Assembly (NCBI RefSeq): GCF_053078305.1
Contig: NZ_CP166875.1
Length of the DNA: 64,000 bases
Strand: one strand, 5' to 3'
DNA from: a plasmid
Position numbers and translations under genes: made by a program
Shown: positions 33,450-33,673 of the stretch, in pieces
Numbering within the stretch: position 1 is the first letter of the stretch
Layout of the letters: the number at the start of each line of letters is the position of its first letter
The notes under the pieces: model-generated
What the model was told of the DNA's origin: nothing
What the model saw: the letters and a program-made list of their open reading frames with translations, nothing else
Databases searched by the model: none

Positions 33450-33615
33450 CCTGCGCGCTCCATCTGATAATGTTCTGACAGGTAAAAATCAAATTCTATA
33501 TGATTTTTGTGTTATCGATTTATGATAATATCAGATATTGTTTCATTACTTATGATTGAAGTCATATCTGATATGAATTTATGTGTGTTACTTAATTATC
33601 ATATCCCCTGCCCGT

Positions 33616-33673
33616 TTCCCGCCGCGCAGATCCGGTTTCCGGCTTTCCCGCCGCGCAGATCCGGTTTCCGGCT
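33616..33673. repeat. 29-bp tandem direct repeat x2 upstream of resD (candidate resolution/replication-associated site)
   Basis: TTCCCGCCGCGCAGATCCGGTTTCCGGCT occurs twice in tandem. Confidence 0.8.

Follow-up and report, generated by a model that had tools for sequence, protein, structure and literature searches.

The window analysed here, a 64,000-nt stretch of plasmid contig NZ_CP166875.1 (assembly GCF_053078305.1), encodes at 34461-35243 on the plus strand a 260-aa tyrosine recombinase (Pfam Phage_integrase, E=2.2e-18), which is 95% identical (237/250) to ResD of the F plasmid but shares just 49% identity with the second integrase of F, encoded beside RepFIB. Upstream of this resD gene and on the same strand lies a 137-aa ORF (34046-34459), the stop codon of which is found 1 nt before the resD start. 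Its product is the same protein as R64 WP_000465036.1 and takes the slot of ccdAB in F. Pfam, NCBIfam, PADLOC and PDB sequence searches revealed no family match for this protein, which may be a partner or regulator of ResD. The left-hand side is occupied by a module on the minus strand (32602-33449), comprising an 85-aa ORF (33192-33449) and a 196-aa YdeA-like protein (32602-33192; UniRef name YdeA). A preliminary description of the DNA in between had reported tandem 29-bp repeats upstream of resD and an AT-rich stretch with an inverted repeat, and had suggested either a ResD resolution site or a vestigial replication-associated element. The repeats are indeed located upstream of the gene for the F ResD orthologue, with the 137-aa ORF in between.

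The site of ResD-dependent recombination, rfsF, has been described as a 28-bp sequence, AGATCCGNAANNNNNNNNTTNCGGATCT, in which two 10-bp inverted repeats enclose a variable 8-bp spacer where the junction forms, and both fusion and resolution of the F-derived plasmid pOX38 at rfsF were shown experimentally (PMC8299605). The window contains a single match to this pattern at up to three mismatches (0.01 expected by chance), at 33657-33684 on the plus strand. This core consists of the left arm AGATCCGGTT (33657-33666), the 8-bp spacer TCCGGCTG (33667-33674) and the right arm TTCAGGATCT (33675-33684), and we predict it to be the ResD crossover site based on the pattern match, homology and break points in related plasmids. 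It agrees with the rfsF arms AGATCCGNAA and TTNCGGATCT at 17 of the 20 specified positions (three mismatches), and its dyad symmetry is 7/10 compared with 9/10 in F. The deviating bases, GGTT in the inner left arm and TTCA in the inner right arm, are also seen at further natural sites. Exact copies of the rfsF pattern are found in the F plasmid (NC_002483, 45922-45949) and in R64, where the pattern starts at nt 43620, the position that also marks the beginning of the R64 “rfsF to yfcA” sequence (43,620-52,796; PMC8004404). The core of the window is positionally homologous to both of these sites. Homology to F and R64 begins at 33679, inside the right arm, and continues rightwards into resD, with a BLAST identity of 82% to F over 33679-33900 and of 97.6% to R64 over 33679-35229 (1.55 kb).

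The tandem repeat overlaps this core. TRF reports it at 33615-33673 with a period of 29, 2.0 copies, 100% matches and a score of 118, and a separate repeat search returned two 100% identical copies at 33615-33643 and 33644-33672. This is the array that had been placed at 33616-33673, one base out of register. The segment 33615-33672 consists of two perfect head-to-tail copies of TTTCCCGCCGCGCAGATCCGGTTTCCGGC, each composed of a 13-nt flank, the 10-nt left arm AGATCCGGTT and six of the eight spacer bases of an rfsF-type site. In unit 1 (33615-33643, plus strand), the pyrimidine-rich flank TTTCCCGCCGCGC (33615-33627) precedes the left arm (33628-33637) and the first six spacer bases, TCCGGC (33638-33643), and no right arm follows. 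Unit 2 (33644-33672, plus strand), identical to unit 1, contributes the left arm, its flank and the larger part of the spacer to the complete site. The complete 28-bp core overlaps unit 2 only and ends 11 nt past the originally flagged interval. The locus is thus laid out as an orphan left half-site followed by a complete site. Judged from the sequence, the 29-bp repeats are a duplication of the left half of rfsF and neither a native array nor part of the site architecture. Four ORFs running across the repeats (80, 106, 60 and 40 aa) were rejected as genes, since none of the relatives has a CDS annotated at the matching positions.

Core anatomy, ResD orthology, flank homology and natural mosaic junctions all agree with an rfsF site at the sequence level. 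We consider it highly probable that the locus represents the rfsF-resD multimer-resolution and replicon-fusion system of F, R64 and ColIb-P9, with the left half of the site duplicated and the palindromes described below belonging to the ydeA-type module. The suggestion of a ResD resolution site hence stands insofar as an rfsF-type core is present, whereas the repeats only duplicate its left half and the inverted repeat is located outside of it. ResD would bind both inverted 10-bp arms of the core at 33657-33684 and exchange strands within the 8-bp spacer, whereby plasmid dimers would be resolved. At such sites, ResD would also occasionally fuse or reshuffle plasmids. By its similarity to the known sites, the allele found here is presumably acted upon by ResD. 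The rfsF-resD system itself is already known. Such sites stabilise large F-type and I-type plasmids, and they are fusion and module-exchange points of virulence and resistance plasmids (PMC8299605, PMC9412624, PMC8004404). What the present locus adds is small: a common allele off the published pattern, an extension of the site into the left flank and a lineage-restricted duplication of a half-site. Since this allele, carried by ∼340 PLSDB plasmids, misses the published pattern by three bases, surveys based on that pattern undercount rfsF sites.

The natural mosaic junctions were seen in a comparison with 4356 plasmid records similar to 33400-34100, 485 of which cover at least 80% of this region. 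In a spread sample of these matches, alignments restricted to the left side end at 33643-33644, and those restricted to the right side start at 33643-33679. We then read 21 rfsF-type sites directly from the sequences. One and the same left half (flank, AGATCCGGTT and TCCGGCT-) is joined to TTCAGGATCT, TCACGGATCT, AGACGGATCT, AAGTGGATCC or ACACGGAGAT, and overall to at least six different right arms and modules with different downstream genes. Conversely, at least six left modules that are unrelated to each other are found next to the R64/F-type right module, and the left arm occurs in three inner variants (GGTT, GAAA and GATT). Because the halves are reassorted among plasmids, the exchange can be placed in or next to the spacer, and the clustering of break points at the core is the pattern that would be expected of an active ResD crossover site. 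In the window and the 20 other sites, the 13 nt left of the arm are pyrimidine-rich and contain a TTTC-like motif, even where the left modules have nothing in common; on that strand, pyrimidines also prevail in the right flank (TCCTCTCCCC). The functional site therefore probably exceeds the published 28 bp and is less symmetric, extending into the pyrimidine-rich left flank.

In pE16-3, EC0880B plasmid 2 and pZ0117EC0040-1, the left half-site is joined to degenerate right arms. Such degenerate, right-arm-like sequences (AAGTGGATCC and ACACGGAGAT) follow the left half-site at 1700-1727 of locus L006, 1393-1420 of L251 and 1729-1756 of L007. These sites adjoin genes unrelated to resD, encoding an acyltransferase or a nucleotide-binding protein, and no integrase is encoded within 1.5 kb of them in L006, L251 and L007. 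Recombination with secondary sites may have produced them.

Compared with F rfsF/ResD of RepFIA, the window shares, in addition to the nearly identical recombinase, the 10+8+10 core with the outer arm bases AGATCC...GGATCT and the ∼220 bp to the right of the core, which are homologous at 82%. In F, too, rfsF marks a mosaic boundary: nt 45922 of F, where rfsF begins, is the point from which the RepFIA region of pEC958 is homologous to F. The two loci differ in the inner arms and the spacer (GGTT/TCCGGCTG/TTCA here, GAAA/ACCCCAAG/TTAC in F), in the 137-aa ORF that replaces ccdAB of F, in the left neighbor of the core (a ydeA-type operon here, pifC in F) and in the extra orphan left half-site. 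Among the IncI1 plasmids R64 and ColIb-P9, the right module of R64 is the closest counterpart, since its 97.6% identity includes both the 137-aa ORF and resD. However, R64 combines this module with an F-type core and a pif left module, whereas the window is unrelated to it left of the core. The proximity of ydeA to rfsF has been described for IncI1 plasmids of the “Col” (ColIb-P9) type (PMC8004404). Unlike in IncI1, the host replicon here is F-type: the closest relatives are typed IncFIA/FIC, and the repA region at 4799-5968 is F-like.

A third relative is the system of the Salmonella virulence plasmid pSLT, named rfsF-RsdB (PMC9412624) and corresponding to crs/rsd of pSDL2. Its core, AGATCCGAAA AAAGGTAG TCCCGGATCT, is located upstream of ccdAB and rsdB and is followed by the same conserved blocks on the right, but the sequence is more divergent (∼75% over 154 bp). 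Krause and Guiney reportedly described 17-bp direct repeats in crs in 1991. TRF detected none of these in pSLT at 18800-21500, so that a counterpart of the 29-bp repeat cannot be asserted for this system. Two inverted recombinase-binding arms around a crossover spacer of 6-8 bp are also the layout of loxP/Cre and FRT/Flp, and rfsF has been compared explicitly with simple tyrosine-recombinase sites (PMC5587640). In contrast to rfsF, these belong to another branch of the recombinase family; the arms of rfsF are less symmetrical, and it has a conserved, asymmetric pyrimidine-rich flank on both sides.

The conserved region to the right of the core (33685-33900, plus strand) is homologous to the oriV1 region of F and contains CACAACATGTGGTG/CACTATATGTTGTG, two TTCCGGAAAGT repeats and a CGGATCT motif. 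The oriV1-homologous stretch as a whole (33679-33900) lies to the right of the flagged interval. The region may hold accessory or regulatory sequences. The two TTCCGGAAAGT direct repeats, located within 33841-33885 at a spacing of 18 bp, are also present in R64. The CGGATCT motif (33872-33878) is identical to the outer bases of the right arm, and TCGGATC is conserved in F and pSLT; it may be an accessory ResD half-site ∼190 bp from the core. For RepFIA, “two rfsF sites” are mentioned in the paper on pEC958. Further to the right, at 33901-34005, we noted the direct repeats TAACGGCGTGGTTATAT / TAACGGCATGATGTTAT and the inverted repeat GATAACGGCAT / ATGACGTTATC, all common to R64. They may serve the operon formed by the 137-aa ORF and resD as promoter or operator elements.

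On the other side of the repeats, the GC content is only 0.22-0.31 across 33450-33600. The inverted repeat arms reported earlier, ATCAGATAT (33530-33538) and ATATCTGAT (33564-33572), are present in this AT-rich stretch, and the repeat is longer than stated. It is a perfect 11-nt inverted repeat, ATATCAGATAT (33528-33538) and ATATCTGATAT (33564-33574), with 25 nt between the arms and a distance of 36 bp from centre to centre, and each arm is itself palindromic. When the 165-nt intergenic stretch was shuffled 2000 times with its dinucleotides preserved, 11 shuffles contained a perfect inverted repeat of at least 11 nt with a loop of up to 60 nt (p ∼0.0055). The inverted repeat is found only together with the 85-aa/196-aa module and is missing from plasmids whose resD-side module has a different neighbor on the left, such as F, R64, pSLT, AR_0369, S. 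sonnei p69 and pAVS0947-B. Since it is tied to the left-hand module and missing from other plasmids with the resD module, it must be outside the resolution site.

A role in the left-hand module is suggested by the predicted structure of the 196-aa protein. The model, which is based on a shallow alignment of 16 sequences and has a mean pLDDT of 64.9, shows an N-terminal winged helix-turn-helix followed by a long helix, with a pLDDT of 84-94 over approximately residues 10-100. In Foldseek comparisons, this winged helix resembles PadR/MarR/LmrR/MepR regulators, including operator-bound structures (E 2e-4 to 2e-3). In sequence searches against Pfam, NCBIfam, PADLOC and PDB, the 196-aa protein gave sub-threshold matches only, and the 85-aa ORF was assigned to no family. 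Regulators of the PadR/MarR-like class typically bind palindromic operators. The AT-rich stretch would then hold the promoter and operator of the divergently transcribed ydeA-type module, and we tentatively propose, as a reading that falls a little short of an even call, that the palindromes are operators through which the PadR/MarR-like protein would autoregulate the leftward 85-aa/196-aa operon. A promoter scan of the minus strand returned no promoter-like site above shuffle expectation, and the one plus-strand candidate (33475-33504) does not exceed this expectation either. No terminator was found in a scan around the locus, and Rfam gave no match at E ≤ 1 for 33000-34500.

Alternatively, the inverted repeat could be without a specific function, either as a chance pair of palindromes in AT-rich promoter DNA or as a slippage-prone repeat. 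EC0880B plasmid 2 (L251, NZ_OX460340.1) carries a clean 36-bp deletion (at ∼1330-1345) exactly between the ATATCWGATAT palindromes, with one hybrid copy left, which shows that the pair behaves as a deletion-prone direct repeat. In pE275a_100, most of the AT-rich stretch is gone. These two plasmids, which have lost one or both palindromes, nevertheless keep the flanking genes and the half-site. Conservation of the palindromes is moderate at most: close relatives (pSTEC17_183a, pE16-3 and pMTY12368) show one or two substitutions in them, including two in the right one of pSTEC17_183a. The DNA hairpin barely exceeds shuffled sequences in stability (z = -1.9). Such a functionless pair is nonetheless rather unlikely in our view, given the shuffle frequency of a perfect 11-nt pair, the predicted PadR/MarR-like regulator encoded in the downstream operon and the conservation of both palindromes in pZ0117EC0040-1, where they are intact despite ∼86% identity across the region.

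In contrast to the core, the second repeat unit is rare. In the best-matching relatives listed, the match is 29 nt shorter than in the window and contains one unit, and, with the one exception described below, a single unit was also found in the other plasmids examined. No such 29-bp repeat exists in F, R64 and pSLT, and the duplication is absent from all IncI-group plasmids examined (six loci). A search of 72,556 plasmids and 5,426 complete E. coli genomes with a 40-mer spanning the unit 1/unit 2 junction yielded nothing. As a positive control, a 47-mer covering one unit and the right arm was found in 340 PLSDB plasmids, in one place each, demonstrating that short queries are detectable. Among the plasmids examined, the only other one with two units is pFHI_NMBU_11_02 (NZ_CP045714.1), where the junction is at the same position and the second unit is a different one: TTTTCTGCCGCGC AGATCCGAAA ACCCTGAG (5216-5285). 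This second unit is chimeric, with a flank similar to that of pZ0117EC0040-1 (TTTTCTGCCGCGC) and a central 11 nt, AAAACCCTGAG, identical to IncI1 plasmid pAVS0947-B; no PLSDB plasmid has a single copy of this combination of flank and centre.

Over 2.65 kb, the window and pFHI_NMBU_11_02 share 32 SNPs versus pSTEC17_183a, compared with 4 and 3 for the other groupings, and 12 of the SNP states common to both are derived relative to the outgroup. By these SNPs, the two plasmids are sisters. As both of them have two units, the two-unit state is real and was probably inherited; most simply, it would date back to their common ancestor. This ancestor may have had two identical units (A and A), with pFHI_NMBU_11_02 later changing the active unit, or the reverse may have been the case. 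The duplication is confined to the plasmid lineage of the window, and the site does not need a second unit. Its presence is probably neutral or at most mildly modulatory.

Two origins can be considered for the duplication, slippage or an aberrant exchange by ResD. The microhomology at the junction is a single T (1 nt), which speaks little for slippage. The ends of the unit match the edge of the flank and the crossover region beyond what random slippage would produce, so that a duplication made by the recombinase, or a functional one, is possible. An aberrant (“illegitimate”) exchange would instead have begun with a cut by ResD in the crossover region of one site, followed by joining to a secondary position that precedes the left arm of a sister or partner site by 13 nt, for example during the near-precise resolution of a dimer or cointegrate. 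An unequal exchange between the core and a position 29 bp upstream of it during dimer resolution would be an event of this kind, and an extra left half would have remained. On the right, the unit indeed ends after spacer base 6 or 7, in the crossover region where relatives switch modules; on the left, it ends where the pyrimidine-rich flank that is conserved across unrelated left modules begins, and 1 nt of microhomology is a poor substrate for slippage. The second unit of pFHI_NMBU_11_02, which combines a pZ0117-type flank with a pAVS0947-B-type centre at the same junction, and the left halves joined to degenerate right arms in pE16-3, EC0880B plasmid 2 and pZ0117EC0040-1 are in line with such an event, and rfsF is linked to illegitimate recombination by the title of O'Connor et al. 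(1986), as cited in PMC8299605. On the other hand, the presumed secondary site matches only ∼4/9 right-arm and 3/8 spacer positions (by eye) and thus bears little resemblance to the core. The shared junction is not independent evidence because the two plasmids are sisters, and one ancestral event is enough to explain it. We therefore regard an aberrant ResD exchange as improbable, if worth keeping in mind. A pseudo-core at the left break point of the duplication was unconvincing by eye.

An extended form of the aberrant-exchange explanation, in which the orphan half-site is the fossil of such an event and the centres of rfsF sites are in addition swapped as small cassettes while the flanks are kept, is decidedly doubtful. 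If true, half-site duplications and centre swaps would report the cleavage window of ResD and represent an undescribed mode of site evolution. Otherwise the half-site duplication is a curiosity, which matters only if it was made by ResD or alters resolution.

It is very unlikely that the tandem units are functional, as an accessory or decoy ResD-binding element or an iteron-like array serving resolution, transcriptional repression or a vestigial origin. Unit 1 does place an extra intact left arm with the conserved flank 29 bp (∼2.8 helical turns) from the core, where ResD could bind; the right-hand region is homologous to the oriV1 region of F, and the adjoining DNA is AT-rich. But a single unit is all that the best-matching relatives listed, the other plasmids examined apart from the sister and the 340 carriers of the allele have; F, R64 and pSLT lack such a repeat, the two-unit junction is unique among the plasmids and E. 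coli genomes searched, and copies that are 100% identical point to a recent event instead of a maintained array. Scans of 33440-33700 for DnaA, IHF (consensus, up to one mismatch), Fur and LexA sites found none, and the locus does not qualify as an iteron or oriV-type element, with no rep gene adjoining the repeats. The idea of a vestigial replication-associated element is not supported, given that the two-unit repeat is missing from the relatives examined and that DnaA and IHF consensus sites are absent. A metagenome scan for full sites preceded by an additional left arm (AGATCCG N15-40 AGATCCG N15 GGATCT) gave at least 120 matches, a pattern too loose for the size of the collection, and none of those listed resembles the rfsF region. 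Likewise, the matches listed for the 15-mer GGATCTTCCTCTCCC in genome contigs are from unrelated taxa and look like chance (∼500 expected in 298 Gb).

A sequencing or assembly artefact, which might be suspected from a perfect duplication seen in one sequence only and a junction present in no other record, is hardly credible, since the independently assembled sister NZ_CP045714.1 likewise has two units there, the second of them diverged, and a 29-bp duplication would be atypical as a read error.

With regard to the plasmid as a whole, the window represents a ColBM-type F-family plasmid with an IncI-type rfsF-resD module. Downstream of resD, at 35413-36631, are the genes for colicin M immunity (cmi) and colicin M (cma), according to the annotation of the sister plasmid, and an F-like hok/repA segment of the IncFII/FIC type is located at 4799-5968. 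Relative to pFHI_NMBU_11_02, the window contains a 3.8-kb insertion at 28609-32394, which encodes a 988-aa Tn3-family transposase (29393-32359). This insertion interrupts a DUF6404 gene, the 3′ part of which is left at 32393-32584, and its flanks overlap by ∼7 nt, consistent with a target-site duplication.
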